From the NCBI GenBank assembly GCA_032718475.1, contig JAUCBJ010002204.1:1-50518 (forward strand): a stretch of DNA of 50,518 nucleotides, read 5' to 3'. The stretch is from Nemertoderma westbladi (taxonomy: Eukaryota; Animalia; Xenacoelomorpha). A model generated the notes under the pieces. That model saw only the letters and a list, made by a program, of their open reading frames with translations, was not told where the DNA came from and made no database searches. The position numbers were made by a program, and so were the translations under genes. Below are positions 2,532 through 22,761 of the stretch, piece by piece (the first letter of the stretch is position 1; the number at the start of each line of letters is the position of its first letter).

Positions 2532-3041
2532 CTACGCGACGCCAGGTATGAGTTTGTTCAGGGGTGGGCGAAATTTACGAATGTAGACCGCCTCCCCATG
2601 TATTCTATCAACGTCTGAGTGGTATTGACGAAAAGCTGTTACACGCAGGTCACCCAACCCGCACTGCAGGAAGTGCTCTGCCAAAAGGATCTCTACGTTA
2701 CGCTGGGACTCGGGGTTGAGTTCCCGTCTGAAATTCCTGATCATCGATCTATGGCCATTCATCCTAAGGTGTAAGGGCTGCTCTGTCTGGCCAATATAGA
2801 AAAGGTTCTGATGGTTGCTACAAGTGATGAAATATAGGATGTTAGCAGATAGACACGAGAAGGATCCTCTAATCACCTCACCCCACGGGGTAGTTCTCAC
2901 ATCACACAAAATTGAACATGTGAGACACCTAGTTGACTCACAGCTTACATTACCTCTCCACGATGGAACTTCCCTCTTACGGACCAAGAGGTTCCCCAGG
3001 TTCGGGGTAGACTTATTTGCTACGATGCAATCAATTGACAT
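2532..3041 (-). CDS. Penelope-like GIY-YIG endonuclease (C-terminal part of a 5'-truncated PLE), 169 aa
   Basis: PNLGNLLV, C...RC.TC, FSC...NILYFITC, FYIGQT...L..RMNGH, LAEHF, E..YI..F.P.LN. An upstream frameshifted VFTYH resembles the PLE linker. Confidence 0.85.
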   Translation of the reverse strand: MSIDCIVANKSTPNLGNLLVRKREVPSWRGNVSCESTRCLTCSILCDVRTTPWGEVIRGSFSCLSANILYFITCSNHQNLFYIGQTEQPLHLRMNGHRSMIRNFRRELNPESQRNVEILLAEHFLQCGLGDLRVTAFRQYHSDVDRIHGEAVYIRKFRPPLNKLIPGVA

Positions 3042-3232
3042 CTCACTTAGTACGGGCTTGTGGTGCCGCAGGACTGGTGTAACAATAGAGTCAAAATACA
3101 GTACCGGGTTAATGATAGGTAAACACGGTTATTTAGTGTATTTCTGTAATTTTCTTACGTATTCAGCTATTCCATGTAGGCCTACTCCATTTGATTATTT
3201 AGTCTGTAATGTGATTTCATATTGTTAATTAT

Positions 3233-3272: not shown

Positions 3273-3365
3273 CAAACTCTTTATTTTATAAGTTTATAGG
3301 GAATTTAGATCATAACCAAACTTGGTACACATGTGCTGCATGAACCCTTTCATGTTTTGTGTAGG

Positions 3366-3370
3366 GGCAT
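3366..3370. repeat. 5-bp target-site duplication GGCAT (partner at 21977-21981)
   Basis: GGCAT lies immediately outside both LTRs and occurs once in the empty-site paralogues. Confidence 0.95.
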
Positions 3371-4542
3371 TGTTCGCGCTTTTGAAGACCTTTAGCAGTT
3401 TAACCTGCCAAAATTTATATGTCTTTTAGTTAATTAACAGACCTTTAGCATACGACAATATTTTATGCTAATAAACAAAACATTAGCCGAAGCCAGCCCA
3501 TGCGCGACCATTCACCCGTTGGATATACCCGGGAGGCTGAATTCGGATGCTTAGATTTTATTATTGCAGTGTAAGATTGCAGTGTAAGCCTACTGTATTA
3601 TTCGATTGATCGCTAATATATAATTTCTGACAGATATTATTCACTTTCGGGAAATATTAACAGTTCCTTTAGGACGTGGCGCTCTATCTATTTAAACAGA
3701 TCTAGGACTTATACTAAACGCAACGATAAGGCTTATGATTAAAGTATAAGGCGCATTCTTTAGGAAATGCTTTGTTACCAGTCACAATCATGCACACTAT
3801 TCTGCCGACCGTCAGTAAATTTGATCACACATAAAGAGAACAGCAATTGACTCATGTAGTGTCTACTAAATAACATTAGATTCAATATACACCACATTGA
3901 TATAAATCGCAATTGTTATATGTAGCCTGTCTCTCTAACCTGTAGTGTATCAAGAAAATTGGGAAATTTGGGTGATTTATCAATATTCTCCAAAGGACAA
4001 TATTTCATCAACAAAATCGATACAATTAATAACTGACTGTAAATAGCAGTACAAACAATATGATTAGTAAGTAAAGTCCGCCGTAAGTTAAGACAAGGTA
4101 ACAGTTATACTTTCTATAATCTAAGCAGTCTGAAACATGAGTTCTTCCAAAAGCCGATGTTCTGGCAAAAAATGGGAACACAACAACAGAATCATGTGAC
4201 ATGACTCTATGCAAGGATACCAGCTACCCTTATTCCACAAAGCTCCCACCCAACACAGAGAATGAGCATAAAGATAGGAAAATTCAGTTCAGTAGACTTG
4301 TGATAGGTCGAAATCAAAACTAACTCAAATCCTATTGGCAGATACAGAGGCAGGGCTATGAGGCAACCTTCCTAAGCTGGTTGGCCGATCAAACGGAGCC
4401 CAGATCCCTTCGTACAGCAAATCAGCCAATCAGCCGGTAGCTTGCACGATTCGAGCTAGCAATCCCCTTTAGAGTATTCCAGCGCTTGGGGGGAACTTGT
4501 TAGCAAGGCAAACGAATCAGTTATCCCACAAAAGCTTTTACA
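3371..4542 (-). repeat. 3' LTR (1172 bp)
   Basis: TGTTCGCG...CTTTTACA. Matches 20805-21976 with two substitutions noticed by eye. Minus-strand AATAAA at 3557-3562. Confidence 0.97.
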
Positions 4543-4550
4543 CCGCTCCC
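4543..4550 (-). other. Polypurine tract
   Basis: Minus-strand GGGAGCGG directly precedes the TG of the 3' LTR. Confidence 0.75.
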
Positions 4551-4620
4551 AGAAAATGGGATTTAAGTCTATAAAATATACAAAATCACAGTTTCTAAAA
4601 TATAAAAATACTCTAAACAG

Positions 4621-7600
4621 TTAGTCTTTCTTGCGCGGACGGCGTTTACGCAGTTTTTTAAAGCTAGCAAGAGTCTTTTTCTCTTTGGGGCGAGCCACTT
4701 TGCAAGGAGGGCTATAACTCCTGGGTGAAGGGTGCAATATGATTGCATCAGAAGGTATGGGATTACGATCGGTATATCCGCCGGTCGAAGTGCCGGGTTG
4801 GTTGACTTCAACTTCGGTGGGGAGGGGTCTAATGACCTTTAGAGCGCGTTTTAAGACGGCCGCTCTTACGGGTCCTTTAAGAGTCGTCTGAACGAGAGCC
4901 GTGGGTGGACCATAGGCAGTCAGAAACTTCCTTGGTTTAATGGTTCTTTCCAACTCGCGTTCGCGGGCTTGGTACTCGTAAGGCCGTCGATATACTTCCT
5001 GTAACTCGGGGTGTGAGTTGACAAATAAGTCTCCATAGTCAGGGTCTTGATGGATAAAGTTTATTAAGTTGTAAGAATGGATGTCACTAGGATTAATGCT
5101 CCTGAGAAATTTGCGTACATATTTGGTTGAAATACATTCTCCGACGCGCTTCAGTAGTTCGTAACTTGATATGCGTGATTTCTGCTCGACGGAGGCAAAT
5201 AAATAAGGATGGAACGCATAAACTCCTTCGTAAGCGCGTCCAGGGTAATAGCGATGGCGTGAATCACAATGCAAATCAGCGTTCGCTTCCCAAGCTCTGA
5301 TATAACGTAGTACAATCATTTCATCTACGCTCTCTAAATCATGATTAAAGGGACAATCAAAGCTGGCGTGTCCTTTTAATTGACAATGGTGGCATTGAGT
5401 CATAAATTGGGGGCAGACAGCAAAAATGTGCAAATTATTAAGCCGGCAATATGCACAATAGATTTCCATCGACGGTTGCTCGTGGAAATAGGAACAGAGA
5501 TCGTTTGTGTCCATAGACGTAATATGGTCTCTCGATGCGCACAGCCGACAACGTTGTCGAGAAACATAATTGGCATGGCGATAATCATACGCAGTGAGAC
5601 ACTGTGGACCTTGATACCATTCCAAAATGTAGTCGCTGTCGCTACTCGGAGGCGTGGGAGGCTGAATCTCTTCGGATTCTAAGCATATTGGTTCGTCTTC
5701 TCCTTGTATAGTTGAGGTAGGCATGGCTGTCTCTTCAAGTGGACCTACCGTCTGAATTTCCACGACAGAATAACCTGTGGGGATTCGAGGTCTTTGGATA
5801 ACAGAGGAGTGCAGGTTTATTACACAAATGTCTTTGAAAATAGCAAATCCAGCGCTATCTAACTTCTCCGCAGCTGAGTCTCTTAAGCTGAGCTTGGTCA
5901 AAGCGCGGTCTTTGAATTGGCTATCCACATTGCGAAACGGGGTTAAAAATCGCCGGAAACATTCAAAGCGGATGAATTTATTATGTTCATCTAGCTTAGC
6001 GAGTTTGGTCCCAAGTATTAATGGATGGGCGCGTATAGTACGACTGCACACATCGGCTAGCCAACCGGAAAGTGCGGTGTTTTCAAAGATCGTGTAGATA
6101 GCTAAGGAGGGGCGGAGTGGAACACTCATGAAGCTATACACGGCGCCAGGTGCGGTCAACGGTCCGTCAAAGTATAATCGAGAATAATGGTCTCCGTATA
6201 CTTGTTGATAGTTGATGGGATTTCCGACCTTGAAATTCCATCCGTATTCCTGAAAAGCAAGATGTCCGATGGAAGTTCGTTGCACCTTTGTAATGTTGCT
6301 AGACGCATTAGCATACATGGTGCGAAAGAAACCTCGGCCTTCGGCCCAAGGAGCTATCAGCTGAGTATCCACGAAAGGATAGGGGATATTTTCCATATTC
6401 GGAAAGTCGTTTTGGAGATCTCCATAAACAGCTGAGCCGATTTTAATGATTCTTTCGTTGAACAACATCTCGAGAACGGGCTGGGGTAACATCGATCCAT
6501 CGATACCCATGGCCGGTTTGCGTTCGGTGTCAATGACGTAACGCTGAGCGAGCTCGAATTGTCCATGTCGGAGATTCTTTTGCGTTTCGGTGAGAGTTTC
6601 AAAGGAATAATCGATCACGTCGGAACACGCTCGCGTAAACACGTGGGTGGAACCAGCTAATCCGCGTATGTGTATCATGCGCGTAGTTCCTAATTCTCCG
6701 ATCGGAACACTACCTTCGTTATCGTAAGTAACATCTCCATACATCTCAATGACATTAAGAGTTTCATTCCACTCTTTGGTGGCGTTCTCGAGGGTCATCC
6801 CTACTGGATGCCACAATGTGGCGCATTGATTAGCGTCAGGGAGATCACTATACTTCATGTATCGAGTGGTATACGTCTCCACATTTCCATATCTTTGTAT
6901 TTTCTCCTCCTCGAATAATACGTCTAGATTCCAATGGACTAATCGAGTTTTAATAAATCCATCAAGATTATAAGGAGGTTCTGTATCCTTCTCTATTCGA
7001 GAAACGTTATATGGTTTTCGGAATGAGTTTACCTTTACTAACTGATCCAGATGTTTTTGCAATTGTTCGAGTTCGACAATGTCTAGAGGATTTATTAGTG
7101 GTAGAAACTTTAAATTATGCGTCGGGTCTTCTGGTTTTACCATATAATATTGAGTCAGATTAACGTAATAAGGGTGGTCTTTAATTCCATAAAAAGAGTT
7201 CTGTAAAGGTCTAGCGCGTATGTTGACATCGTGTACCATACGACGGACAAGATCCGCTCGATTGTCCGGAGGTTCAACGAGTATACCGTCAACGCGAGCG
7301 GCCTCGATTGGCGGACGCTGTAACATAGGAGCGTCAGCAATAAGATTTTGCGATCTTATGCTAATATCAACCGGTTGGGGTTGTATCTTTGCGAAGAGTT
7401 TGTCTCCGAAATGCGGAACCATCGAGGGATGACGGACGGTTTTAGAGTAGAGATCGGTTATGAGTATCTGAGCTTCGGGTTGGGCTAAAGCGGCTTCTTC
7501 TCTCTCATCCATTTCCGTATGTTTCTCCTCGAGTTGATTTTCCTCCGCTTGTTTCTGTAAGCGTTCTTCTAGAAACTCCTGTAGAGAATACGTACGTCCA

Positions 7601-8043
7601 AGCTCGATGTCCTCCTCGAGGTTTTGGATTTCTCTATCAAACTGCGGCAAGGCTAACTCTTTCACCGATTGGACTTGCTGCTGTAATTTACATTTCTCTA
7701 GACAATCCTGTGTTCCCTTTCCGATTTTCTGTCGGATGGCATCTAAAGCATTTCTTATAACGCTCTCCTCGACTTCCGTGGCAGGTTGTATCGGGGTTAA
7801 TCCTGGCCGATTGTAAGGATTAAATGGCGATGTTAGATGCCCGCGTCCCAATCCGGCTAAATAGGATGGTCGAATATCTAACGAACCCACTGCTGGAGCA
7901 CCACCGATTAACTGCTCGGGTAACACCAAATCTTTGAACAGTGAATATAGCTCGGGAGGATCAGTGATACTGTTAGGATCAAGAGTTTGAGGTCTCACTG
8001 AGGAATGAGGAGGCCTGACCGAGTATTCCGGAACTCTGATCAT
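4621..8043 (-). CDS. Accessory ORF4 (1140 aa): coiled coil + DnaQ-like 3'-5' exonuclease domain + zinc-knuckle cluster + basic tail
   Basis: ExoI-like VTYDNEG (D441/E443); ExoII-like LP..VLEMLFNERIIKIGSAVYGDL (D542) then FVD; ExoIII-like LAIYTIFEN (Y650/E654). CRLC, CAYC and CHHCQLKGHASFDC knuckles at aa 832-897. C-terminal KKLRKRRPRKKD. Confidence 0.8.
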   Translation of the reverse strand: MIRVPEYSVRPPHSSVRPQTLDPNSITDPPELYSLFKDLVLPEQLIGGAPAVGSLDIRPSYLAGLGRGHLTSPFNPYNRPGLTPIQPATEVEESVIRNALDAIRQKIGKGTQDCLEKCKLQQQVQSVKELALPQFDREIQNLEEDIELGRTYSLQEFLEERLQKQAEENQLEEKHTEMDEREEAALAQPEAQILITDLYSKTVRHPSMVPHFGDKLFAKIQPQPVDISIRSQNLIADAPMLQRPPIEAARVDGILVEPPDNRADLVRRMVHDVNIRARPLQNSFYGIKDHPYYVNLTQYYMVKPEDPTHNLKFLPLINPLDIVELEQLQKHLDQLVKVNSFRKPYNVSRIEKDTEPPYNLDGFIKTRLVHWNLDVLFEEEKIQRYGNVETYTTRYMKYSDLPDANQCATLWHPVGMTLENATKEWNETLNVIEMYGDVTYDNEGSVPIGELGTTRMIHIRGLAGSTHVFTRACSDVIDYSFETLTETQKNLRHGQFELAQRYVIDTERKPAMGIDGSMLPQPVLEMLFNERIIKIGSAVYGDLQNDFPNMENIPYPFVDTQLIAPWAEGRGFFRTMYANASSNITKVQRTSIGHLAFQEYGWNFKVGNPINYQQVYGDHYSRLYFDGPLTAPGAVYSFMSVPLRPSLAIYTIFENTALSGWLADVCSRTIRAHPLILGTKLAKLDEHNKFIRFECFRRFLTPFRNVDSQFKDRALTKLSLRDSAAEKLDSAGFAIFKDICVINLHSSVIQRPRIPTGYSVVEIQTVGPLEETAMPTSTIQGEDEPICLESEEIQPPTPPSSDSDYILEWYQGPQCLTAYDYRHANYVSRQRCRLCASRDHITSMDTNDLCSYFHEQPSMEIYCAYCRLNNLHIFAVCPQFMTQCHHCQLKGHASFDCPFNHDLESVDEMIVLRYIRAWEANADLHCDSRHRYYPGRAYEGVYAFHPYLFASVEQKSRISSYELLKRVGECISTKYVRKFLRSINPSDIHSYNLINFIHQDPDYGDLFVNSHPELQEVYRRPYEYQARERELERTIKPRKFLTAYGPPTALVQTTLKGPVRAAVLKRALKVIRPLPTEVEVNQPGTSTGGYTDRNPIPSDAIILHPSPRSYSPPCKVARPKEKKTLASFKKLRKRRPRKKD

Positions 8044-8058
8044 GGGTTTATTTAGCGA

Positions 8059-8874
8059 TCATTTGAGACGGGCGATCGTAGGTGATACGTCGAACAGGTT
8101 TCGCTCGAAACTCCCGTAAGTATAACGCGTAAAACTGTGTTTAGCACAACGTCTCCGCGGATGTTTATGTCTTTCCGTTTGCTGGTTAGGTCTAGGGCAT
8201 GCGTCACAATAATACCAAAGACGTACGTCCTGTAGAGGAAACGCGGGTGATCGTTCTCCAGTTTTGCAATACTCTTCCATTTGTTCAAAGCTGTCCGGGA
8301 CAACAGGCAGTGGACGATCTGCGGTAAGATACATCATGGTGAAATAAAGTCGTTTGAGTTCTACCATGGGATCATGATGTATACCTTGAGGATATCTAGT
8401 CTCTAGGTTCTGTTGACTGGCAATATTGAGATAGGTTTCTCTCAAAAATTCCAAGTAGTCGTTGAAGTTGATGCGCTTATCGGGTTCTTCAACGTTCTCT
8501 CTGTCGAGTAGGTTGCGAATAGAGTTCTCGTGTTCTATTCTCGGTTTATCATTACGATTCCGCTGGGCATGATATTTAAATAAAACCATTTCCCTTTCGG
8601 TGTCTACATCGTCCGTATCATGTAAATCGGTAGGATGGCCAGTAGTTAAGAAGTCCATATACGTACCATTACGATTCGTATAGCGAGCGGTGAATTTTCT
8701 ATAGTCCAATTCACGCGTAAGTTGTTCCTGGGACATAGGCGGTTCGATATAACGACCATCGTCCTCCGTAATAGTCGGATCGGCTTCACCGCGTATCAAG
8801 CTATCCACAAACGCTTGTAAAGGTAAGGTATATCTCTCTCTAATACCAAGGTCATCTTCTATTAATTCCGTCAT
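8059..8874 (-). CDS. Accessory ORF3 (271 aa), function unknown; C-terminal Cys/His cluster
   Basis: Open frame inside the element in sense orientation, after a 1.6-kb AT-rich spacer. YYCDAC...HKH....CAKH is a possible Zn site. In frame with ORF4. Confidence 0.75.
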   Translation of the reverse strand: MTELIEDDLGIRERYTLPLQAFVDSLIRGEADPTITEDDGRYIEPPMSQEQLTRELDYRKFTARYTNRNGTYMDFLTTGHPTDLHDTDDVDTEREMVLFKYHAQRNRNDKPRIEHENSIRNLLDRENVEEPDKRINFNDYLEFLRETYLNIASQQNLETRYPQGIHHDPMVELKRLYFTMMYLTADRPLPVVPDSFEQMEEYCKTGERSPAFPLQDVRLWYYCDACPRPNQQTERHKHPRRRCAKHSFTRYTYGSFERNLFDVSPTIARLK

Positions 8875-8916
8875 ATCTGCTATCTGAGTTTATTAATATT
8901 AGTATGAGTCAATATT

Positions 8917-9067
8917 TAGGCAAGCGGGCGTCGCTGCCTACTAGTCTTTGCCCCCGGACAGTGGGTTTCTCAGCGCCGATGTACCGTTGTCGCGGTGTTT
9001 ACGCCAACATGTAGCAACAGCACGACAACGATAATCGGCACAAGTCCCACCACTGTCCGTCCCAAAG
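8917..9067 (-). promoter_or_regulatory. Structured RNA element: long imperfect hairpin plus short hairpin upstream of ORF3
   Basis: Nested inverted pairs CTTTG/CAAAG, CGGACAGTGG/CCACTGTCCG, GCCGAT/ATCGGC and CGTTGTCG/CGACAACG (8946-9067). A second hairpin TAGGCA..TGCCTA spans 8917-8940. Confidence 0.7.
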
Positions 9068-9679
9068 GCTTGAATCCACTTGAGGTTATCTCGGTAGAGT
9101 TAGGGCTACTTTACAATTGCGATTAGCTACTGTAAACACACTTTAGTAGTAACATTCACCTATAAACGCACAAATTCCATACAATCATTACTTACTGCAC
9201 ACATGCAGGCCATTTGTCCGTTAGTCAGTATCTTCCAGAATGTCACGTTATTACTATGTATCCTTGGATACTAATAGTGCGCTATGTATCCTCTTATGCT
9301 ACGCAATGGGGCAAGCCTTTTATTGTTCTTTTAACTTGCTTCTAATTCTAGCGTGGTGTTGCTATGGTGACATTATGGAAAACTAGCGGTAGAATTAGGG
9401 TAATTCTCATGCATACAGATCTGGGATGCTATTTAATAGTAATTCTTTAATTGCCAATATCCTCTTTATGCATGATTTTATTAATTTTATCGGCTATTGA
9501 CTATATGTTGGAGATTCTCGCACTCTGACACATTCAATGGGATAAATCTCCACTCCCGTGATCTATTAATTAATGGAATTTTGGGAATGTTAAAAATTGC
9601 ATAAAATGACAATTTATTAAATTCATTTAAAATATGAATTTCAATTTATTCCCGTGAATTTTATTATTTGGTGGTAAAT

Positions 9680-9970
9680 TTTATTCCAGAACAAGTCTGG
9701 GGACATAGGATCCTTAATTCTATGAAAATTGTCTTTTAAGAGTATCGGTAAGTGCTACGATATCTTAATCGACTAGAATATTTTAAAGGATCTAAGTTTT
9801 ACAGATTTTAATAAATATTAAATTAATACTTAAGATGGGCACCGATTTATTCCAGAGCTTGTCTGGGGACGTTAACCACTGATTCTAGAATTTGTCTTTC
9901 AAGTATATCGGTGGGTGCCACGATATCTTAATCGACTAGAATTACAGATGGTCAAAAGATTTAACAGATT
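9680..9970. repeat. Two diverged ~125-bp direct repeats in the pol-ORF3 spacer
   Basis: TTTATTCCAGA..GTCTGGGGAC...TATCGGT...ACGATATCTTAATCGACTAGAAT at about 9680 and 9846. Confidence 0.8.
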
Positions 9971-10487
9971 TATTTGCGTTTTACGCTACTGTTAGAGGGA
10001 CATCACGCTACTATATGTATTATTTGTTATAAGGTAGAAGAGCAATATCGCACGAAGCAATGTCAGTGTGAAGAGGCAAGTCGTTTCCAAGGTCTACCCA
10101 GAGCTTGGTTTAGCCGAGACACGAGGATCTGAACTTTGCATTCCTAATACTCTGCCTACCAATAATACTTGAATATAGTAGTGGCTTTATTGTACTTTAA
10201 TAAGTACTGACATGTCATCTTACTATAGTCTCGCATTTATAATATAATACGGACAGTAAGGAAAGAGAAAAATAATTATTTCTTGCCGTCGCACTAAATA
10301 TATATTATAAGTAATTAAGTACGTAATAAACACTAATATATTGCACTAATTTACTAAATATTCTAAAATAACATTTTACTAAATAAAATTAAATAAAAAC
10401 GATTATAATAAAGTACATAATAACATTTACATATAAAATGTAATAAAATAGATATAATAATATAGACATACACCCACTCCAGACGTA

Positions 10488-13400
10488 CTACGTTGAGGAG
10501 CCCCTAGATGTTTGAGGAATTAGGGAGGTGGTCGTGGGAAGAGTTTCTTGCCTTCCATAGTTTCCGGAGAGTTCCCGGTCTCTTTCCAGCAAACATAAAC
10601 GACCAACTGGGCGATTGAGTTGTTGCGTCTCAAAGATTATGCCGGGTTTCTTGAAGTTACGCCGCATGACAACGAGTTCTACTGAGCGCACTAAACCATC
10701 CTCCGAGATGTGCGTCTTGATGATACGACCTGTCTGCCACCGTCTACGTGGAAGGTCCGGATCTACAATAAGCACCATGTCTCCGGCGCTGACATTTTCC
10801 TGCTGTGCAAACCACTTAGTTCGAAGTTGTAGTGTGGGCAGATAATGTTTCTCAAAATGGTCAGCGAAACGACGGGATAGCAACTGCATAAGCTGCCAAG
10901 TTCGACGGCAGTATTCATCCCCGTCGGCAATCTCGGATTGTGGGAGCATGGCTACAGGTTTCTTAAGTAGGAAGTGCGCGGGTGTTAGCGCTTCCAGGGA
11001 ATCGGGACTCGATGAGACTGGCATAAGCGGTCTCTTGTTAAGATAGGCAGCGATTTCCTCCATTAACGTCCGCAGAAGTTCGTCGGTGAGATATGCGCGG
11101 CACGGCACTATAAAGTGAAATGCGGTCTTGACACTTCGAATTAATCTCTCCCAACTTCCTCCCCACCAAGGGGCGTCGGCGGCGTTAAAGGTCCAGCTAG
11201 ACGCTGTTATCCGTAGCTGGTCGTCCACCTGTCTTTGATTCCAGTCCTTTACGTATGCCTGAATTTCGTTGTTGGCACCAATGAAGTTCGTTCCCTTATC
11301 AGATCTCATCGTGTTGCTAGTTCCGAAACGAGCGATCTGTCGTCGTAAACATAAGACGAAGCTATTAGTAGATAGATCGTTCACCATATCGAGATGGATA
11401 GCTCTACAAGTCATGCAGACAAAGATGACACACCATCTCTTGACTATAGTCCTAGCACGATACACTTCAATAGGGCCAAATAAATCCACACCAGTATTAG
11501 TAAAGGGTGGTTCATAAAAGCTTACTCGTTCCCTAGGTAATTCTGCCTCTCGCTGGGTTAAAGGCCTACTGAATGCTTTCCTACAAGGTATGCAGTTCCT
11601 AAGAACTTGGTTCAGAGCTCTACGTGGTTTATAAAAATAATAGCGAGTTCGAATTTCGCTAAGAACTCGTTCTCTACCAGCATGATACAGTTTACTGTGA
11701 ACATCTACAATCATCTTGATTTGTACTTCAAGATTTCTAATGAGTATAGGGAATTTAGTGTCAAAGGATAATGGGGCGTTGGTAAGCCTTCCTCCAACAC
11801 GTATTAACCCATCTATCATTGTGCTAGAGAAGCGATCCCTTAAGCGCATCTGCGGATTTCTCAACAACAGGAAATACTTATCGGAATCCTCATAGCATTG
11901 CAGGAGTCTCAGTATCTGCTTATTAGTTTCTTCATGCTCCTGGTGGCTGATCTTCTCCTTTAGAAACCGGTCTGATATCTTGTACTTAGGTAGATCTTTA
12001 ATAACATGAACTTGCGCAGATGTCACTGGAGCAGTATCACTAGTGGTCTGCGTCCTGGAGTAGTGATGGTGAAAACATTTCTTTAAGTATGTGACGGCTT
12101 TACAGAGCCGATTCCAGGAACTGTAATGATGCAGTGCTCTCTGCAGCAGGGGTGAGATTCCTTGCGAGACGTCTGGTATCCCAGATTTCCAATCTCTGTC
12201 TCTAATTTCCACAACAGACTTATTTGTGGCGAGGGATTGTGGATCCGAAGTATCGTTTTCGGAAGTATGTAATACAGATAGATCGATTGTCGGTTTAAAT
12301 AACTTCGATTTACTTGTCCGAGTTTTGGGCTTGACTTTCTCCACTCCCTTGGCTTGTCTAATCTCAGCCGTAGTAAGGTGAGGAGGCCATTCATCCTCTT
12401 CCTTGCTCAGGAAGTCGGGTCCACCCAACCAGTCAGGAGTATATATCAGTTCCTGTGGAGTTGCTCCCCTGGAGGCGATGTCAGCTGGGTTAATCGTACC
12501 AGGGCAATGTCTCCATTGATCTATCGTTGTGCGACTAAGAATAATGGCCACTCTGTTAGTAACAAAGACGCTGAACTGACAGACTTCATTCATTATATAC
12601 TCCAACACAAGTAAAGCGTCGGTCCAATAAACAGTTTTCTCCAGTGGATAATCGATCTGTTCTGTTACATTCCGGCCGATAGCTGTAGCATATAAAGCTG
12701 CTTTTAACTCCGCCCGAGGAACCTTCAGCTTGTTGTTAATCAATGCCTTAGAGGTAACCAAGGCAACTTTGATTCCATCCGGAGTTTCGACTCGCAGGTA
12801 TGCTACTATACCTATTCCCATATCGCTGGCATCTCCGAATACATGGAGTTGATAGGAATACGTAGGGAGAACATGACCAAAATATGAACGGGAAATTATA
12901 AAGTTCTCGATGGCAGGTAGCGAGTCCTCCCATTTCATCCATTTCTTTAATAGTTCTCCCTTGTGTGGATCGTCCCACGAGTGGTTTTCAAGCCACATTT
13001 GTTGTACTAAACTCCGAGCAATCAATATAACTGGGCTAATAAATCCCAAGGGATCGAAATAAGTGCTCAGAATACTTAAACAAATCCGTTTGGTCCGAAC
13101 TGGATTATCTCGCTGTTTTAGCTGAAAAAACAGGATATCTCTTTCTGTGTCCCACTTCAAGCCAAGCGTCTTGGTTTCCGGAAGATCGTCGTGTATTAAG
13201 TCGAGGTCTTTTGATCCCCGGTCTTCTACAGATATTGCTTCCAGAAACTCACGGGAGTTGCTGGTGAACTTCGTCAATCGAAATCCACCTCTTTTCAAAC
13301 ACTCAACCGTTCCTTTCGCGACATCAATGGCTTCTTTTACTGATGGAAGGGACTTTAAATTGTCGTCCATGTATATGTCTCGTTTGATGTTATCTATCAC

Positions 13401-13880
13401 CTCTTTTGAGAAGGCGTCCCGGTTGTCATCCGCAGTGGTCCGCACCACTGAGCAGGCGTTTGAAGGGCTTGATATAATCCCAAAAGCCTGGATGGTCATC
13501 CAGTACTCTACCGGTTTCTGGTTGAGATCTCCTTCAGGCCACCACAGGAATCTTAGGCTGTCTCTATCACGATCCAACGCCTTGACTTGTGAGAACATTC
13601 CTTCTATATCGGAGGCGAACGCGATGGAATATTGTCTTAATCTTAAAAGTATTCCCAACAAAGATTGGAGCAAGTTGGGTCCTGGTAACAACTCGGAATT
13701 GAGGGATTGGCCCATATATAGGGCTGAGCCATCAAATACGACCCGTACTTCATGGGGTTTACCGGGTTTGGGAACATAATGATGTGTTAGATAATAAGTT
13801 CTTTCAGTTATTGGAGTTCCTTCCGGTACTCGCTCCGCATATCCCTTTGTGATAAATTTCTTCAACTGAGTTTGGTACAT
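10488..13880 (-). CDS. pol: Bel/Pao Pol (RT, RNase H, integrase), 1130 aa; the frame stays open up to 13910
   Basis: RVVFDGS, LLPGPNL, DIEGMF, YMDD (RT); FGDAS, PRAEL, WTDA, NPADIASRG (Pao RNase H); H..H..C..C, GVDLFGP, SDKGTNF, GGSWER (integrase). Confidence 0.96.
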   Translation of the reverse strand: MYQTQLKKFITKGYAERVPEGTPITERTYYLTHHYVPKPGKPHEVRVVFDGSALYMGQSLNSELLPGPNLLQSLLGILLRLRQYSIAFASDIEGMFSQVKALDRDRDSLRFLWWPEGDLNQKPVEYWMTIQAFGIISSPSNACSVVRTTADDNRDAFSKEVIDNIKRDIYMDDNLKSLPSVKEAIDVAKGTVECLKRGGFRLTKFTSNSREFLEAISVEDRGSKDLDLIHDDLPETKTLGLKWDTERDILFFQLKQRDNPVRTKRICLSILSTYFDPLGFISPVILIARSLVQQMWLENHSWDDPHKGELLKKWMKWEDSLPAIENFIISRSYFGHVLPTYSYQLHVFGDASDMGIGIVAYLRVETPDGIKVALVTSKALINNKLKVPRAELKAALYATAIGRNVTEQIDYPLEKTVYWTDALLVLEYIMNEVCQFSVFVTNRVAIILSRTTIDQWRHCPGTINPADIASRGATPQELIYTPDWLGGPDFLSKEEDEWPPHLTTAEIRQAKGVEKVKPKTRTSKSKLFKPTIDLSVLHTSENDTSDPQSLATNKSVVEIRDRDWKSGIPDVSQGISPLLQRALHHYSSWNRLCKAVTYLKKCFHHHYSRTQTTSDTAPVTSAQVHVIKDLPKYKISDRFLKEKISHQEHEETNKQILRLLQCYEDSDKYFLLLRNPQMRLRDRFSSTMIDGLIRVGGRLTNAPLSFDTKFPILIRNLEVQIKMIVDVHSKLYHAGRERVLSEIRTRYYFYKPRRALNQVLRNCIPCRKAFSRPLTQREAELPRERVSFYEPPFTNTGVDLFGPIEVYRARTIVKRWCVIFVCMTCRAIHLDMVNDLSTNSFVLCLRRQIARFGTSNTMRSDKGTNFIGANNEIQAYVKDWNQRQVDDQLRITASSWTFNAADAPWWGGSWERLIRSVKTAFHFIVPCRAYLTDELLRTLMEEIAAYLNKRPLMPVSSSPDSLEALTPAHFLLKKPVAMLPQSEIADGDEYCRRTWQLMQLLSRRFADHFEKHYLPTLQLRTKWFAQQENVSAGDMVLIVDPDLPRRRWQTGRIIKTHISEDGLVRSVELVVMRRNFKKPGIIFETQQLNRPVGRLCLLERDRELSGNYGRQETLPTTTSLIPQTSRGSST

Positions 13881-13910
13881 TTCCTTAGCTGAAGCATTTG
13901 CCGTAAGACG

Positions 13911-16900
13911 TCAATGTAATTGATTGATTCTTTTCTCAGCTAAGGGTCTGTTATTTATAAATCTAGGTTCCCGTTTTCGAAATGGTAGTCCGATTTCATA
14001 TCTACCTTGATCTTTTAAAAAACGTGTGGTTGTTTCCTGGATTTGCTTGGCTCTTTCTTCTTCTATCGACAGGGCTTTGTCGTATGAATTGGGTTCTACC
14101 AATTCTTGGGTAAAGAATCGTACGGCGAGTTCGTCCCGAGTTCTAGCGTTGTAGCGCTCTACCTCGTCATTAAGTTCGTCATTATAAACAATGGATTCCG
14201 TTGGGCGAATCAGTTGACATAGGTTCGCTTGGTTTTTCCAAGTTTGATTCTCTGTAAGTAGGTCAATTGCGTTCTCTTCTTCGAAGAGTTGGTAGATGTC
14301 GTCGTTATCTGAGGAGTATGGTGTTCCCTCAGTTAGTTCGTCCACTTCACTGCTCTCCACTTCCAAACCATTTATCTGGCATATTCTTTCTGGTGGTAGT
14401 CTCTCTTCGAGAGTTCTGCGGGAAGGGCCAGTAAAGTACCAACCTACTCTAGTTCTTACCGCATAGGTTTGTAGTGGCTGCGGTTGAGCAGGTCGTTTCT
14501 CCAATGTCTCGAGCGCCTCGTGAGCGTTTTGGCCGATAAGTATTTGCACTCCAGGATAATCTGTCTGGAATCGAGGTATTTTAAGTTGTTGGATGCTCTC
14601 GTCCTCGTCCCAGTTATAAGGCTCTACTTGGGTATTAGCGAAGTTCTTTATAGCTACCATTTTTACTGACCTTATACTTTGTTCTCCTAATTTATCCTGG
14701 GGAGTAGACAATGCACCAACATAGTAATCGGCCGTGATGGTAGATTTCCAAACTTGCATAATTCTGGACATATTCAACTTAGTGCGGAATTTGGGTTGTC
14801 CAGCAAAGATGTCTACGGCTAATTCTTGATCGATGAATGTTCCTGTGCTGCCTGAATCGAGTAGGGCGTTCACTATGTAACTTTTGTTGAGACCATGAAC
14901 TCTTACTTGCACTACAGGAAATTCTCTTATTCCTATGTTGGAAGTTGGAACTTTCCAAGATGGTTGTTTGTCAAAGGTAGTTGGAGTAAACTCGTCAGTG
15001 TCTTTTTCATACGTAAGTGCTCGATAAACTGTGGTATTTATTAGATAACAGGATTCGTTGGCATCGGAGAATTCGTCTGTATAGAATCCTTCCCACTCAG
15101 AACCTTGGTCAGTGTCGTTCACATCACTGAACTGGACATGTAATTCGGGCTCACTTACCTGACTCGGGTGGTTTCGTTCGAATTCGCTATGTAACAAGAC
15201 GTGATGTTTCGTACCGCACTTTGCACACTTTATGTCGGAGTAACAGGTTCGCCGTTGGTGTCCTGGTCTGAGGCAATTATAGCATAACCGCTTATCCCAC
15301 ACGACTTCTCGTCTGGCTACTAGGGATTTCTTTAGGAATTCAGCACACGCACTCAAACGGTGGGGCCCGTCGCACAGCACACAGTTTGGTTTAATGTTAC
15401 TCACTTTACCTTGGGTAACGTTATGCACTCTCGTTCTTTCTTCGGGCTTTCTTCCGTGTACTCTGTTAGGAGACTGAGGAGGAGTCTTAGCAACCTGTTC
15501 TCTCCTGTCATGGGTTCGAGCTTTAGATTTACTTACGTCCTTTGAGGTCTTGTTAATATAGTAAAATTTCTCGGTGTCTTTCCCTCTGTCTTCTTCTTGA
15601 GAAGCTTGGCTTTCGCCGTCATCAGTATAACACACAGGTGTTACTCTTCTCCTAGAAACGGGTTTCTCACTCACCTTATTTTCCGATGTTTTCTCTCTGG
15701 ACTGCTTGATGAGTTGTAGCTTTACTTCACCATCTAAGAAGGACATGAGATCAGCCATGGTGGGGCTTCGTCGTTGCTGCTCATTCATATACAATACCTT
15801 CTTATCCCAGTGAGTACATACTCCACCCTTTGGCAAAGTAGAGACTATGGCTCCAATAACCATAGAACTCTGATATTCATGAGACTTACCTAACCAATCC
15901 AATTGTCGGCAGATCTCTTGAATCTCATCGGAAAACTCTATAATCTCGTTACTGAGGAACTTTCGGGGGGCTACTAGTTTTGCATAGAAATACTTAGCTA
16001 TGTTATCCTTATTACCATACCTGGTGTTTAATGTATCCCAAACTTGTCTTAATCCATTCGGATGTCCAATAAACTTCAACGCCATTAACTTGGGAGGTCC
16101 TTCCAAACATTTGATGAGGAATCTCAGTTTCTCTCCGCTAGATAGTACAGAGTTCTGTATGCTATCTTCGTAATATTCATTAAACGGTAACCATTTCATC
16201 TCATCTCCATTGAATTTGACGATTTCTCCCACTTTAACCGCCTGGCGGGCTTCTGTTCTAGCCATCTGACGCGTAAAGCTTTCTTGGGCCATCGTATTAT
16301 TTAATATCGAATTATCGGTATATGAACTTCTCGGATTATTATCAGGTCTATAGGGAATATCATTAACAACAGGTTTATAATCACCATTAATAGGGTTTGC
16401 TATAGGAGTTTCTACTTCACTAGCAGTATAGATGCGTGTAGGCTCCACACCTTGCGCATGTAATACTTCAGACCTAACAGGCTGACACACTGTTACAGGG
16501 GTTATTGGTATTCCCTTTTGTATGTTGACTAATTTGTCGCGTTCCAACGCGATACTTTGCTGCACTTCTTGCAGTTCTATCCTACTTTCCCTTACTGTTC
16601 CCTTAAGTTGGTGGACAGTCCCTTCTAAATCTCGGATCTGCTGTGAGGAACATTCTCTGTGTTCTCTCAGCTGCCCGAGCAAGAGACCCTTCTCCCGCCG
16701 TCCCTCATCAACCCACTCGACCGCCGAAGCGGGAGTCGCCAACATAGTAGCGGGCCGACACGAAACGACGGGAGACAAATCTTGGATTTCTCTCTCGGCC
16801 TCAAGAACTGGGGCATTCTCATGGACTGTTCTACCGGGTACAGGCAGTGTAGTACTGTGTAAAGGGAATTTAGAGCTAGGCTCTGGAAGTACAGGGGTCT

Positions 16901-18650
16901 CTAGCACAGGAGTGGCTTTGGGAACGACAGGCCTAATTATTTCAGGCTCATCAACTATTGTAGGGAGTCTTTTGACCTTAATAATTTGGTCTGTGGGTTC
17001 TGTACTACCTACAGCTGTACTAGTTAATTGTCTTCTAACAGCAGGGGGCAAATCGGGCAATTTATGACGGTGAGATGTCTTTCTACGCCTACTGAGACGA
17101 TATCTATTTCCTCCGCCTTCAGGATCGGTGGTATCTCCCTCCTCCGATGATGTATAACCTTGGCGTTTGGAATTAGATTGATTCATCATCTGCATTCGAT
17201 TGTCAGTCAACTGTTTATTTATGTGATCTTGACTTTCCTGAATATTTTCCAATGCTAGCTGGGCGATCTCGTCAGACGCTCTCCTTTCTGCTTCTGCCAA
17301 TTTTCTTTCTGCCTCTGCTGCTGCAGCCTTTCTTTCTGCCTCTGCCGCTGCAGCCTTTCTTTCTGCCTCTGCCTCTGCCGCTGCAGCCTTTCTTTCTGCC
17401 TCTGCCGCTGCAGCCTTTCTTTCTGCCTCTGCCTCTGCTGCCTTTCTTTCTGCTTCTGCCGCTGCCACTGCTGCTGCTTTTCGATCCTCTATCTGTTTTT
17501 TCTTGACTTGTTCTTCCTGGGCTCTGGCGATGCGGAGTTGTTCATCAAATTTAGCTTGGTTTGCAGCTAACATTTCAGTATCGATTGCGTCCAACACATG
17601 CTTGGTTCCTTCACTATTAGGGGAAAGTCCAACCAGTCGTCTCCTCAACTCTTCATCACCCAAGAAACGTTGATAGTCTGACAGATAGATGTCGATGGCG
17701 TCTCTCTTTCGCGGTCTTTCTGCTGTCGCTTCGCCTTCCGTTTGAGAAAAGATGGCATCGGTTGATTCGTCATAGGTTGGTCGCTCAGCCAGCTGGGATT
17801 TCCACTGGGCTGTTTCTTGAACTTTAAGACCTACCCGTTGGAGCCATGTCTTGACAGCAACTTGCAGCGACGTGTCCTGTCTTCTTTTAGAAGTTTCCTC
17901 AAAGGCTGATAGGATTAGTCTAATGCGCAGTGTTCTTTCGCGTACTTGATAAAGCAGCTCTTCCTGCTCTTGAGGTCCTTTGGGTTGTCGAAACAGTTGT
18001 TCTTCTAATCGTTCTAAGGAGCCGAAGAACCCCTGCACATATCCTGCTGCCGACCTCTTCCAAACAGCTGGATCCATTGTATCTTTAGTCACTCCTATCC
18101 TGTGTATGTCTTCCCAAGTAGCTTCGGACAAATCTAACGGGAGTCCGGGTCCGGGAAAGTTCCATTGGGACTCGACAATAGACATCAATTCTTCCCTGGC
18201 GTATCCCGCATAACTATCTTGGGTCGCTTGCTTATTTCTCGCCCAATCAACTTGGTGTTCCTCCACCGCAATAAATATAGTTGTTAATACCGCGGCAGGA
18301 AGGGTGAGAAGGGGATCTGAGTAGGCTGTAGCCGCCATCTGTACTCCGCGTTCGGGGTTCAGCTCTACAGTATCCGAACTACTGGAGCTATCGGGTCGCT
18401 GGGAACAAGTTTCTTGACTAGGATCTTGCTGCTGTTGGACAGCTGCTTCTTGGTTCCGTTTGACCTGGGCCCGAGTGCCTATGACAGACCTATGGTGGAT
18501 TAGCCTAGGGTCTGATACTACTGGAGGAGTGACCTTTCTTTTAGTAGGAGGTGAACTGAACTCTTTTCTTACTTGTTCCACACTCCTATCCTTGTCACAG
18601 ATGGTTGTATCGATTAAACTGTCTGACAGGTTTTGCTTTGTGTCAGACAT
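13911..18650 (-). CDS. gag: Bel/Pao Gag-protease part of the polyprotein (1579 aa), ending at an in-frame TGA
   Basis: KFNGDEMKWLPF...EKLRFL..CL.G capsid-like region; triple knuckle CVLCDGPH..C / CYNCLRPGH...C / CAKCGTKHHVLLH; aspartic protease ALLDSGST; GRYEIGLPF linker. Confidence 0.93.
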   Translation of the reverse strand: MSDTKQNLSDSLIDTTICDKDRSVEQVRKEFSSPPTKRKVTPPVVSDPRLIHHRSVIGTRAQVKRNQEAAVQQQQDPSQETCSQRPDSSSSSDTVELNPERGVQMAATAYSDPLLTLPAAVLTTIFIAVEEHQVDWARNKQATQDSYAGYAREELMSIVESQWNFPGPGLPLDLSEATWEDIHRIGVTKDTMDPAVWKRSAAGYVQGFFGSLERLEEQLFRQPKGPQEQEELLYQVRERTLRIRLILSAFEETSKRRQDTSLQVAVKTWLQRVGLKVQETAQWKSQLAERPTYDESTDAIFSQTEGEATAERPRKRDAIDIYLSDYQRFLGDEELRRRLVGLSPNSEGTKHVLDAIDTEMLAANQAKFDEQLRIARAQEEQVKKKQIEDRKAAAVAAAEAERKAAEAEAERKAAAAEAERKAAAAEAEAERKAAAAEAERKAAAAEAERKLAEAERRASDEIAQLALENIQESQDHINKQLTDNRMQMMNQSNSKRQGYTSSEEGDTTDPEGGGNRYRLSRRRKTSHRHKLPDLPPAVRRQLTSTAVGSTEPTDQIIKVKRLPTIVDEPEIIRPVVPKATPVLETPVLPEPSSKFPLHSTTLPVPGRTVHENAPVLEAEREIQDLSPVVSCRPATMLATPASAVEWVDEGRREKGLLLGQLREHRECSSQQIRDLEGTVHQLKGTVRESRIELQEVQQSIALERDKLVNIQKGIPITPVTVCQPVRSEVLHAQGVEPTRIYTASEVETPIANPINGDYKPVVNDIPYRPDNNPRSSYTDNSILNNTMAQESFTRQMARTEARQAVKVGEIVKFNGDEMKWLPFNEYYEDSIQNSVLSSGEKLRFLIKCLEGPPKLMALKFIGHPNGLRQVWDTLNTRYGNKDNIAKYFYAKLVAPRKFLSNEIIEFSDEIQEICRQLDWLGKSHEYQSSMVIGAIVSTLPKGGVCTHWDKKVLYMNEQQRRSPTMADLMSFLDGEVKLQLIKQSREKTSENKVSEKPVSRRRVTPVCYTDDGESQASQEEDRGKDTEKFYYINKTSKDVSKSKARTHDRREQVAKTPPQSPNRVHGRKPEERTRVHNVTQGKVSNIKPNCVLCDGPHRLSACAEFLKKSLVARREVVWDKRLCYNCLRPGHQRRTCYSDIKCAKCGTKHHVLLHSEFERNHPSQVSEPELHVQFSDVNDTDQGSEWEGFYTDEFSDANESCYLINTTVYRALTYEKDTDEFTPTTFDKQPSWKVPTSNIGIREFPVVQVRVHGLNKSYIVNALLDSGSTGTFIDQELAVDIFAGQPKFRTKLNMSRIMQVWKSTITADYYVGALSTPQDKLGEQSIRSVKMVAIKNFANTQVEPYNWDEDESIQQLKIPRFQTDYPGVQILIGQNAHEALETLEKRPAQPQPLQTYAVRTRVGWYFTGPSRRTLEERLPPERICQINGLEVESSEVDELTEGTPYSSDNDDIYQLFEEENAIDLLTENQTWKNQANLCQLIRPTESIVYNDELNDEVERYNARTRDELAVRFFTQELVEPNSYDKALSIEEERAKQIQETTTRFLKDQGRYEIGLPFRKREPRFINNRPLAEKRINQLH
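17280..17480 (-). repeat. Coding tandem repeat (AEAERKAAA)n in the Gag N-terminal extension
   Basis: Repeated TCTGCCGCTGCAGCCTTTCTTTCTGCC units of 24-30 bp that keep the frame. Confidence 0.9.
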
Positions 18651-18762
18651 ACTTAGCTACCTGGTATACAGTTGAATGCTTACTGCTATAGTTACAGTTA
18701 AAGCAAGTGTAGTAATTCAGTATAACCGTTGCCTAGTACCGGTAATTTATTATAGTATATTA

Positions 18763-19010
18763 GAATACCGGTATACACTTATAATATATATAAGTATTGT
18801 GGACTAGGTTTGTCTCAGAATACCGGTATATAATTTTAGTACAAATATATAAATATATAATAAGCCTATTGTGAATACCGGTATGCAGCTTACACTTATA
18901 GTATATATATAAGTATAATTATGAACTAAAATTAATTACAGAATACCGGTATGATTTCAGCCCAAATTTATAGAAATAAAGATAATAGGCCTATCGTAAA
19001 TACCGGTATA
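18763..19010. repeat. Degenerate tandem repeat with AATACCGGTAT cores in the 5' leader
   Basis: Five AATACCGGTAT cores spaced 53-69 bp apart, with a higher-order unit of about 110-125 bp. Confidence 0.75.
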
Positions 19011-20006: not shown

Positions 20007-20500
20007 AAGCCTAAATAAACTACAGTATGTGCAGATTCTGAAACTGTTAGTTAGTATGCGTGCTAATACGGTAGTACGACTTATTCTTTAAGAGGGGATT
20101 GACCTTACAGCTATGGCTGCCCCAACTTACTAACTGGCACCTTATCAGACTTACTCTACACACGCAGCAATCTCTTCAGACCCAATAATAGCTAGACAAC
20201 AATCCAGCCTACAAAATATCTGAGTAATAACTATTACGGTACCTGAACAGACTACACAAACAAACACAGGCCAAAAGCTGGCAGAATACTGTCAAGCCTA
20301 AATAAATTACAGTATGTGCAGATTCCAAAACGGTTAGTTAGTATGCGTGCTAATACGGTAGTACGACTTATTCTTTAAGAGGGGATTGACCTTATAGCTA
20401 TGGCTGCCCCAACTTACTAACTGGCACTTTATCAGACAAACTCTACACACTCCGTAATCTCTCCAGACTCAACAACAGTCCGACAACAGTCTGACCTACC
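20007..20500. repeat. ~205-bp direct repeat (period 287 bp) in the 5' leader
   Basis: AAGCCTAAATAAA..ACAGTATGTGCAGATTC...GCTGCCCCAACTTACTAACTGGCAC at 20007 and 20294. Confidence 0.9.
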
Positions 20501-20804
20501 AATTGTCTGTATAGACTGAGCAAGCTTACACGCCTTCTGCTCAATACTGGCCTACAAATAAATAAAACTGACAGAAATAAGTAAGCTCCAAAAGAAACAA
20601 GGGGTGTACAGTCCCTAATCTCTTAAACAGCCTACCGGTATGCAATAATCAAAATCGAATAATACTAAATGTACTTGTACAGCAGTACCGGTACCGGTTA
20701 TGACAGTTGGGCCTACTGACCTACAGAAGTACCGGTTCAGGTTTACCGGTCGACCGGTACTTTGCAACCTTATTGCTTACTGCAATAAGATCGTTAACTG
20801 TTAC

Positions 20805-21976
20805 TGTTCGCGCTTTTGAAGACCTTTAGCAGTTTAACCTGCCAAAATTTATATGTCTTTTAGTTAATTAACAGACCTTTAGCATACGACAATATTTTAT
20901 GCTAATAAACAAAACATTAGCCGAAGCCAGCCCATGCGCGACCATTCACCCGTTGGATATACCCGGGAGGCTGAATTCGGATGCTTAGATTTTATTATTG
21001 CAGTGTAAGATTGCAGTGTAAGCCTACTGTATTATTCGATTGATCGCTAATATATAATTTCTGACAGATATTATTCACTTTCGGGAAATATTAACAGTTC
21101 CTTTAGGACGTGGCGCTCTATCTATTTAAACAGATCTAGGACTTATACTAAACGCAACGATAAGGCTTATGATTAAAGTATAAGGCGCATTCTTTAGGAA
21201 ATGCTTTGTTACCAGTCACAATCATGCACACTATTCTGCCGACCGTCAGTAAATTTGATCACACATAAAGAGAACAGCAATTGACTCATGTAGTGTCTAC
21301 TAAATAACATTAGATTCAATATACACCACATTGATATAAATCGCAATTGTTATATGTAGCCTGTCTCTCTAACCTGTAGTGTATCAAGAAAATTGGGAAA
21401 TTTGGGTGATTTATCAATATTCTCCAAAGGACAATATTTCATCAACAAAATCGATACAATTAATAACTGACTGTAAATAGCAGTACAAACAATATGATTA
21501 GTAAGTTAAGTCCGCCGTAAGTTAAGACAAGGTAACAGTTATACTTTCTATAATCTAAGCAGTCTGAAACATGAGTTCTTCCAAAAGCCGATGTTCTGGC
21601 AAAAAATGGGAACACAACAACAGAATCATGTGACATGACTCCATGCAAGGATACCAGCTACCCTTATTCCACAAAGCTCCCACCCAACACAGAGAATGAG
21701 CATAAAGATAGGAAAATTCAGTTCAGTAGACTTGTGATAGGTCGAAATCAAAACTAACTCAAATCCTATTGGCAGATACAGAGGCAGGGCTATGAGGCAA
21801 CCTTCCTAAGCTGGTTGGCCGATCAAACGGAGCCCAGATCCCTTCGTACAGCAAATCAGCCAATCAGCCGGTAGCTTGCACGATTCGAGCTAGCAATCCC
21901 CTTTAGAGTATTCCAGCGCTTGGGGGGAACTTGTTAGCAAGGCAAACGAATCAGTTATCCCACAAAAGCTTTTACA
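20805..21976 (-). repeat. 5' LTR (1172 bp)
   Basis: Direct repeat of 3371-4542, upstream of gag on the minus strand. CCAAT-like boxes lie in the presumed U3 part (about 21765-21865). Confidence 0.97.
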
Positions 21977-22761
21977 GGCATCTCATTATGATCAAAAGGC
22001 TTTCCGAGCTGCACGATAAATTAATGTGCTGTGTGAAGAGGAAGTGGTACGTGAAACCTTCACGTACTGTGCGAAGGTTTCACGTGCTGCGCAAAGCTTA
22101 ATGTTCTGTGTAAAGGCTTATTGAAAAAATATATGGAAATTGTTATATAATTTTGAAATTTTGTTGAAGGTTGTATCATTATACCATGACTACTTATTAA
22201 GAAATGGCGAAATGGTATGCCATCAAATCTAAACACCAAAATGAAATTTGTTCACGGGCTGCGCGCAGGGTTTTTGGGCACGCGGTCTAAAAATTCAACA
22301 GGTTTTTAAAAGTGGGTTGGGGTTTATTTGAACCAAGATTCATGAACTCCATTGGAAAATCACAAAATGGGTAGGAGATAGATAAACAATGGGAAAAGAA
22401 AAGGAGATATCAGTTACATGAAAATAGCCGGAAAATTTGATATGTATTGTTCTTAAACTTAAAATGCATTTATCTTTGAATTGTATTTTTCACATTTAAA
22501 ATACTACTACTCAGCCATTTCTTAACCAATTGTCGAAATTTTTTTTTGTTTCATTTGTTTTCGGCTTTAATCATTTCTTGAAATTTGTTAATACCGGTAT
22601 ACTGTATAATAAATAATAAATAATATTAGTTAATAATATTAAAAAAAAATAAAGATCCAAAAAAATGTAACTGATAAGTTTTGTGGAGCCAATGATGCTG
22701 ATTCAGAAAAACCAAATATCGAAAATTTTCTCCCAAAATTGGGAGAAAAAAATTGTAGTGT

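Follow-up and report, generated by a model that had tools for sequence, protein, structure and literature searches.

Genes for DEDDy 3'-5' exonucleases have been described in mobile elements before. The available part of the account of the bdelloid rotifer retrotransposons Juno and Vesta describes a DEDDy open reading frame (ORF), ORF3, that follows pol, is shared with Athena/Terminon elements and has the motif DEED (PMC5408684), and accessible sections of PMC6431247 and PMC6338049 mention these ORF3s again. Dada DNA transposons also carry a DEDDy 3'-5' exonuclease domain, which, according to the available text, lies inside the DDE transposase and has all four acidic residues canonical (PMC3706591). 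The cellular protein TbRND, as portrayed in the accessible part of PMC7797062, is a trypanosome mitochondrial exoribonuclease of the RNase D family, in which RNA is bound by the CCHC fingers and shortened from its 3' end at a two-cation site. Bel/Pao elements are 4.2 to 10 kb long with an 18-nt tRNA primer site (PMC8742986), and the extra genes reported in them are env-like (PMC8742986 and the available parts of PMC13524379 and PMC3118150). Here we analyze a 50,518-nt stretch of Nemertoderma westbladi DNA (GCA_032718475.1, contig JAUCBJ010002204.1; “the window”) containing a Bel/Pao-type long terminal repeat (LTR) retrotransposon, whose ORF3 encodes a probable DEDDy-like 3'-5' exonuclease domain and three CCHC zinc knuckles. 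The theme of a retrotransposon-borne DEDDy ORF3 is already known; in the present case the host element is Bel/Pao-type and about double the customary length, the protein is laid out like TbRND, and the element also carries another orphan gene and a candidate self-primer. An earlier note, made from the letters alone, had implied greater novelty than this, as DEDDy ORF3s in the env position are already published for Juno and Vesta in the part of PMC5408684 available.

Compared with Juno and Vesta as described in that source (PMC5408684), the ORF3 of N. westbladi is likewise a separate, non-env ORF between pol and the 3' LTR, lacks a membrane segment and has a DEDDy domain of DnaQ-like type in which one Asp is changed to Glu, and a putative function. 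The host element is of Bel/Pao type here, whereas those of the rotifers belong to gypsy-like clades. Compared by description only, the motif is DEDE here (the third acidic residue, D542, being Asp) and DEED there, and the present ORF3 has three CCHC knuckles, a length of 1140 aa and a second accessory ORF upstream. Like TbRND, it has tandem CCHC knuckles downstream of a 3'-5' exonuclease domain (PDB 7c42/7c45; available text of PMC7797062). In contrast to TbRND, which is cellular and has four fingers after a linker of ∼28 aa, ORF3 has three knuckles ∼170 aa downstream of the domain, possesses long extra termini and resides on a retrotransposon. PDB and profile searches returned no sequence match to TbRND, and orthology is not claimed.

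Probable exonuclease domain and zinc knuckles of ORF3

The coordinates and frame check agree with the earlier description of ORF3 as an uninterrupted 1140-aa sense ORF within the LTRs, stopping 78 nt before the 3' LTR (which starts at 4542). The other five frames over ORF3 contain 55 to 71 stops and 300 base shuffles left at most 237 open codons, ruling out a chance ORF or an antisense shadow. A nested second element as the source of ORF3 was also rejected, as neither a further pair of LTRs nor repeats flanking such an element were detected. The maximum 19-residue hydropathy is 1.36, and ORF3 is therefore without an apparent membrane segment; this accords with the claimed absence of a signal peptide or transmembrane segment (judged by hydropathy, without a dedicated signal-peptide predictor) and led us to reject an env-like protein. 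Three Cys/His knuckles were located in the interval proposed for them (5350-5550), and the predicted basic C-terminal tail is present (Table 1). The knuckles match retroviral nucleocapsids (E values of 0.002 to 0.004) and, by blastp, are not similar to the knuckles in gag of the same element. The N-terminal coiled coil that had been suggested is not established: aa 95 to 190 are acidic and nearly free of proline, but the assessment of a coiled coil was limited to a crude heptad count.

When 1.84 billion representative proteins were scanned in full with HMMER, two distant homologues were found, P0005 (E value of 2.7e-8) and P0006 (3.8e-4). Both have the layout of ORF3, i.e., an exonuclease-like region, a low-complexity linker, three knuckles and a downstream motif, at 21 to 27% identity, and the acidic residues D441, E443 and D542 are invariant in both lineages. 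By ESM Atlas features, the nearest cluster to P0006 combines PF01612 with zf-CCHC and is mostly from Euglenozoa (0.92, 194/256). P0005 and P0006 to P0010 are unnamed proteins of 575 to 648 aa from short ENA contigs (up to 11.5 kb) and have the exonuclease, the knuckles and the downstream motif in common with ORF3. They apparently represent an undescribed protein family. Word-index protein searches gave no match, a weak blank because one of them missed even P0005 and P0006, which are contained in the same collection. No relative turned up when viral, metagenome and prokaryote contigs were scanned, a plasmid tblastn search with P0005 produced a single match (E value of 6), and none of three members matched PHROGs.

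Profile comparison indicates that the domain is DEDDy-like and very probably homologous to RNase D/PolI-type exonucleases. A profile of ORF3 aa 405 to 690 and the two homologues was aligned (hhalign) with 14 exonuclease domains of RNase D/PolI type taken from annotated entries, a reference set that includes 12 of the 30 listed plasmid matches, chosen for diversity. The alignment covered 175 columns with a score of 60.75 (hhalign probability 95.6, E value of 1.3e-8), which was reached by none of 100 column shuffles (maximum 20.3). When 25 single-sequence windows across the element's four proteins were scored, only the two covering the exonuclease domain exceeded 19. ORF3 alone matched TIGR01388 RNase D at aa 521 to 566 (E value of 0.0058, under the curated cut-offs), and 25 of its 30 matches by ESM Atlas features are in the PF01612 set (0.91). 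A PDB profile search gave three weak matches, including Egalitarian (the best, with an E value of 0.074) and EXD2 (1.4), and a PDB search with ORF3 alone gave one (1.4). Of the earlier assignment to DnaQ-like DEDDy domains of the WRN/Mut-7/EXD family, the DEDDy homology holds; the closest host subfamily may be that one or RNase D.

The putative catalytic residues D441, E443, D542, Y650 and E654 all occur at the positions assigned to them. D441/E443 (ExoI) align with D28/E30 of Escherichia coli RNase D in hhalign and MAFFT E-INS-i, and D542 (ExoII) aligns with D85 in both MAFFT modes. The proposed order of Exo motifs is thus borne out for ExoI and ExoII, but ExoIII has an alternative register, Y636/S640. 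The Y650/E654 register is favored by blastp with P0005 and by ungapped scoring against 10 of the 14 references; P0005 itself has YxxxE and P0006 the canonical YxxxD. As ExoIII of ORF3 is YxxxE or YxxxS, not YxxxD, the domain is filed as DEDDy-like and not as a canonical active member. The earlier caution that Glu in place of Asp makes activity uncertain is therefore retained, with YxxxE favored and YxxxS as the alternative. The presence of YxxxE in P0005 also indicates that this Glu is a shared trait and not a lesion of the window copy.

Several observations weigh against a functional exonuclease. As a single sequence, ORF3 has no Pfam exonuclease match, and its ESM Atlas match shares 157 features, fewer than the 170 that genuine members of the family typically share. 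One of the two MAFFT modes, L-INS-i, misplaced ExoI. At ExoIII (YxxxE, 650/654), Glu replaces Asp, and the Y636/S640 register, which would be without a metal ligand, was chosen by MAFFT de novo and is favored by P0006 and 3 of the 14 references (with 1 tie). AlphaFold models from one- and three-sequence inputs had confidence (pLDDT) values of 30.6 and 29.9, too poor to show a fold, and Foldseek found nothing at an E value of ≤0.001 with the second of these low-pLDDT models, for which a fold search is meaningless. The structural check that had been recommended thus left the fold unconfirmed, but the separate profile comparison supports homology to RNase D/PolI.

The Bel/Pao-type element and its copies

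ORF3 is carried by a minus-strand LTR retrotransposon of 18,606 bp (3371-21976 of the window; Table 1), with LTRs of 1172 nt each that have TG...CA ends and differ by 2 mismatches. The element is flanked by a 5-bp target site duplication (TSD), GGCAT, of which a single copy stands at each of two empty paralogous sites in the window (29238-29292 and 34562-34616), where the target repeat is uninterrupted. Its boundaries are therefore exact and its insertion recent. The sequence into which it inserted is itself a repeat, with intact copies at ∼29240-29290 and ∼34560-34615.

Pfam domains over the cut-offs were DUF1759 in gag and Peptidase_A17 (E value of 2.6e-35), Integrase_H2C2 and DUF5641 in pol, in the order protease (PR), reverse transcriptase (RT), RNase H (RH) and integrase (IN). 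No Pfam match was found for RT in pol, which was recognized by its YMDD motif only. We take the set of DUF1759, Peptidase_A17, integrase zinc finger and DUF5641 to be Bel/Pao-type, an association consistent with the Pfam name. Pao-type domains, LTRs, TSD and polypurine tract support the assignment made in the earlier note; “Bel/Pao-type” is used instead of Bel/Pao because the assignment is based on these domains and structural features. The element resembles Belpaoviridae (PMC8742986) in its 1.2-kb LTRs, polypurine tract, gag-PR-RT-RH-IN order and Pao-type Pfam domains. It is unlike them in its length of 18.6 kb, the lack of an 18-nt tRNA primer site and extra genes that are not env-like. In the literature searched, which included the available part of PMC3601003 and had Repbase and subscription journals outside its scope, we found neither an exonuclease ORF nor self-priming reported for any Bel/Pao element.

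Other family copies were compared as contigs at 80% likeness in four runs from 3 studies, the best holder among which may be the window's own sample; ORF3 words occur in six runs from four studies. An in-frame stop (13913-13911, minus strand) parts gag-protease from RT, and contigs from all four runs differ from the window copy within this codon. The stop is likely a lesion of the window copy rather than programmed read-through, and this copy is therefore likely pol-defective with ORF3 intact. Contigs covered all 30 bins, every ORF3 bin included, in each of the four runs, and ORF3 is thus present in other family copies, as anticipated. Among the 32 pieces listed (of ∼172,700), 12 are inside ORF3, 11 of them gap-free despite 419 other letters, and none of the 12 listed indels (of 219) falls in any ORF. 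Retention of the ORF3 frame in family copies has modest support from these data, and only modest because both lists are selections made by the comparison tool. Other results from the copies point away from a maintained gene. The six listed ORF3 differences, a tiny list, comprise 3 third and 3 second codon positions and show no sign of selection, and summed contig depth over ORF3 (not a copy number) is ∼1/3 to 2/3 of that over pol. In addition, a 2734-nt deletion joint (4783-7518) that removes most of ORF3 occurs in three of the four runs and likely represents a deleted subfamily.

No tRNA-type primer site was found, as TGG is absent from the 40 nt that follow the 5' LTR, and the 50,518-nt window contains no tRNA genes. 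The first 10 nt past the LTR are an exact reverse complement of a site within the LTR. Such complementarity was obtained by chance in 31 of 20000 simulated LTRs, or 160 of 20000 with offsets of 0 to 3 (∼0.002 to 0.008), a figure uncorrected for the complementarity having been spotted by eye before testing, and such a 10-nt complementarity to the LTR occurs at 30 of 16212 other internal positions. Predicted duplex pairing is 0.98 if the RNA starts at the LTR site and ≤0.08 if it starts ≥35 nt upstream; no TATA-like box was found ∼30 nt upstream of the site. The complementarity suggests Tf1-like self-priming of the element, with a half-tRNA primer as the alternative. As in Tf1/sushi-type self-primers, described in the available parts of PMC4600332 and PMC6317226, there is no tRNA site and the primer-binding position complements a 5' LTR site. 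Those self-primers, however, have been described in chromoviruses of the Ty3/gypsy group and in certain copia lineages of plants but not in Bel/Pao (same sources, same parts), whereas here the complementary site is ∼730 nt upstream and an RNA start at that site is hypothetical.

ORF3 had been placed where env would be, which is correct in that it lies behind pol and before the 3' LTR, but it does not directly follow pol: a 1.6-kb spacer and ORF-X, overlooked in the earlier note, intervene. ORF-X matches no Pfam family and no PDB entry under an E value of 0.1. It is in the same frame as ORF3, separated from it by one stop and five codons, and the gap between them (8061-8044, minus strand) contains AATAAA and an overlapping out-of-frame ATG. 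Read-through, re-initiation and a split gene are open options for this junction. Seven bases past the pol stop, a purine tract is followed by TGT (10480-10470, minus strand), resembling the true polypurine tract/LTR junction. It may represent a former 3' end, with the accessory cassette appended behind it, or else be a central tract; the sequence downstream shows no similarity to the LTR.

Table 1. Features of the N. westbladi retrotransposon (window coordinates)
Feature	Position	Strand	Details
TSD	21977..21981 and 3366..3370	.	5 bp, GGCAT on +; flanks element
5' LTR	20805..21976	-	1172 nt; AATAAA at 20996-20991
Candidate self-primer LTR site	21532..21541	-	LTR nt 436-445; 4107-4098 in 3' LTR
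Primer-binding position	20795..20804	-	First 10 nt past LTR; exact reverse complement of LTR site
gag-protease ORF	13911..18650	-	DUF1759, three Cys/His motifs, DSG protease motif; in-frame stop before RT
pol frame	10488..13910	-	RT (YMDD), Peptidase_A17, integrase zinc finger, DUF5641
AT-rich non-coding spacer	8890..10487	-	∼1.6 kb; stop-free stretches of at most 68 codons
ORF-X	8059..8874	-	271 aa from ATG; C-terminal Cys/His cluster
ORF3	4621..8043	- (sense to element)	1140 aa; ATG at 8043, stop ending 4621, no internal stop
DEDDy-like 3'-5' exonuclease domain (predicted)	6064..6756	-	∼aa 430-660; D441, E443, D542, probable Y650/E654
Three CCHC-type zinc knuckles	5353..5550	-	aa 832-897; Cx2Cx4Hx9C, Cx2Cx5Hx4C, Cx2Cx4Hx4C
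Post-knuckle motif	5206..5298	-	∼aa 916-946; common to both homologues
Basic tail	4624..4731	-	15 Lys/Arg in last 36 aa
Polypurine tract	4543..4550	-	Adjoins 3' LTR
3' LTR	3371..4542	-	2 mismatches vs 5' LTR

Within the 2.15-kb leader (18651-20804), 290 nt are duplicated (19931-20509) and short repeats with ACCGGT occur (18762-19026), and gag contains an Ala/Glu-rich 27-nt repeat (17260-17487). Rfam gave no match at an E value of ≤1 over 3300-22100. Elsewhere in the window, a GIY-YIG ORF occurs at 2532-3128 and 25677-26273, within a 2-kb inverted duplicate; both copies are presumably Penelope-like fragments. Paralogous C2H2 zinc-finger arrays with 84-nt repeats lie at 30937-32190, 42639-44138 and 45026-46777 and by pattern count have 6, 17 and 16 fingers, respectively.

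Possible roles of the ORF3 protein

We consider it rather probable that RNA is the ligand of ORF3 and that the protein has some trimming activity. More tentatively, and with more doubt than confidence, we propose that the domain and knuckles hold on to single-stranded RNA and shorten it from the 3' end, the RNA being most likely host small silencing RNAs or their precursors. The knuckles would hold the RNA and a two-metal site would cut it from the 3' end, as in TbRND. The protein would be made from its own subgenomic RNA and be able to act in trans, the ExoIII Glu would be tolerated or would tune activity, and the putative enzyme would blunt host silencing by PIWI-interacting RNAs (piRNAs) and small interfering RNAs (siRNAs). 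Counter-silencing is preferred because LTR elements in animals are constrained chiefly by small-RNA silencing and because a separate, non-polyprotein gene, RNA-binding knuckles and a basic tail suit action in trans. Nevertheless, the choice of host small silencing RNAs as the substrate is a guess, as no result distinguishes substrates, and the available part of PMC5408684 reports no clear link between the bdelloid DEDDy ORF3 and copy number; both points count against this proposal.

A protein that binds RNA without cutting, acting like EXD1, Maelstrom or Egalitarian as a scaffold or decoy for silencing or RNA-transport factors, would fit an ExoIII Asp that is replaced or misplaced, the position of Egalitarian as best PDB profile match and the catalytically inactive DEDD derivatives of the piRNA pathway mentioned in the accessible text of PMC5408684. 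We regard it as unlikely given that D441, E443 and D542 are the same in all three lineages despite an identity of ∼25% and that P0006 has the canonical YxxxD and P0005 YxxxE. It is also unlikely that ORF3 assists replication, with the element self-priming like Tf1, ORF3 trimming its RNA primer or other RNA ends and the knuckles chaperoning annealing. The missing TGG, the exact 10-nt LTR complement with its low chance expectation, the strong pairing of an RNA starting at the LTR site and the nucleocapsid-like knuckles would all suit such a role, but pairing collapses with a start further upstream and there is no TATA-like box ∼30 nt upstream of the site. Tf1 priming, moreover, reportedly requires the RNase H domain, so that no extra nuclease is needed there.

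ORF3 might instead be neutral cargo, captured or exchanged and carried with no gain for the element, an explanation in keeping with the deletion derivatives, the lower depth over ORF3 and the neutral-looking variation of bdelloid ORF3 within a genome (tested on env- and GDSL-like ORFs, according to the available part of PMC5408684). This we find very unlikely, since 1140 codons are open although the gag-pol frame of the same copy has a stop, pieces are gap-free at up to 20% divergence, and no close cellular parent was found among the 1.84 billion representatives; the last of these also indicates that ORF3 has diverged far while staying open. Least probable is an aid to DNA proofreading or cDNA end trimming in a long genome. 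Polymerase proofreading domains and WRN do belong to the DEDDy enzymes, this retrotransposon has ∼2 times the usual Bel/Pao length, and DNA-end processing was proposed for the DEDDy domain of Dada in the available text of PMC3706591. The domain is not fused to pol, however, its CCHC knuckles and its RNase D/TbRND-like neighbors point to RNA, and nothing in our results supports a proofreading role. A wider picture, in which a giant Bel/Pao lineage has dispensed with tRNA priming, primes itself by RNA fold-back and carries a TbRND-like mobile exonuclease-knuckle protein of an undescribed family that matures the primer or strips piRNAs, is as a whole decidedly unlikely.

Counter-silencing therefore remains the preferred, if tentative, role for ORF3. 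The element departs from two textbook Bel/Pao traits, size and tRNA priming, and its ORF3 extends retrotransposon-borne DEDDy genes, so far a rotifer curiosity, to another LTR superfamily. This Bel/Pao-type family is young, has many copies and possesses an intact exonuclease-knuckle gene, which makes it a clear candidate for the question whether transposons of animals have enzymes directed against piRNA/siRNA silencing.

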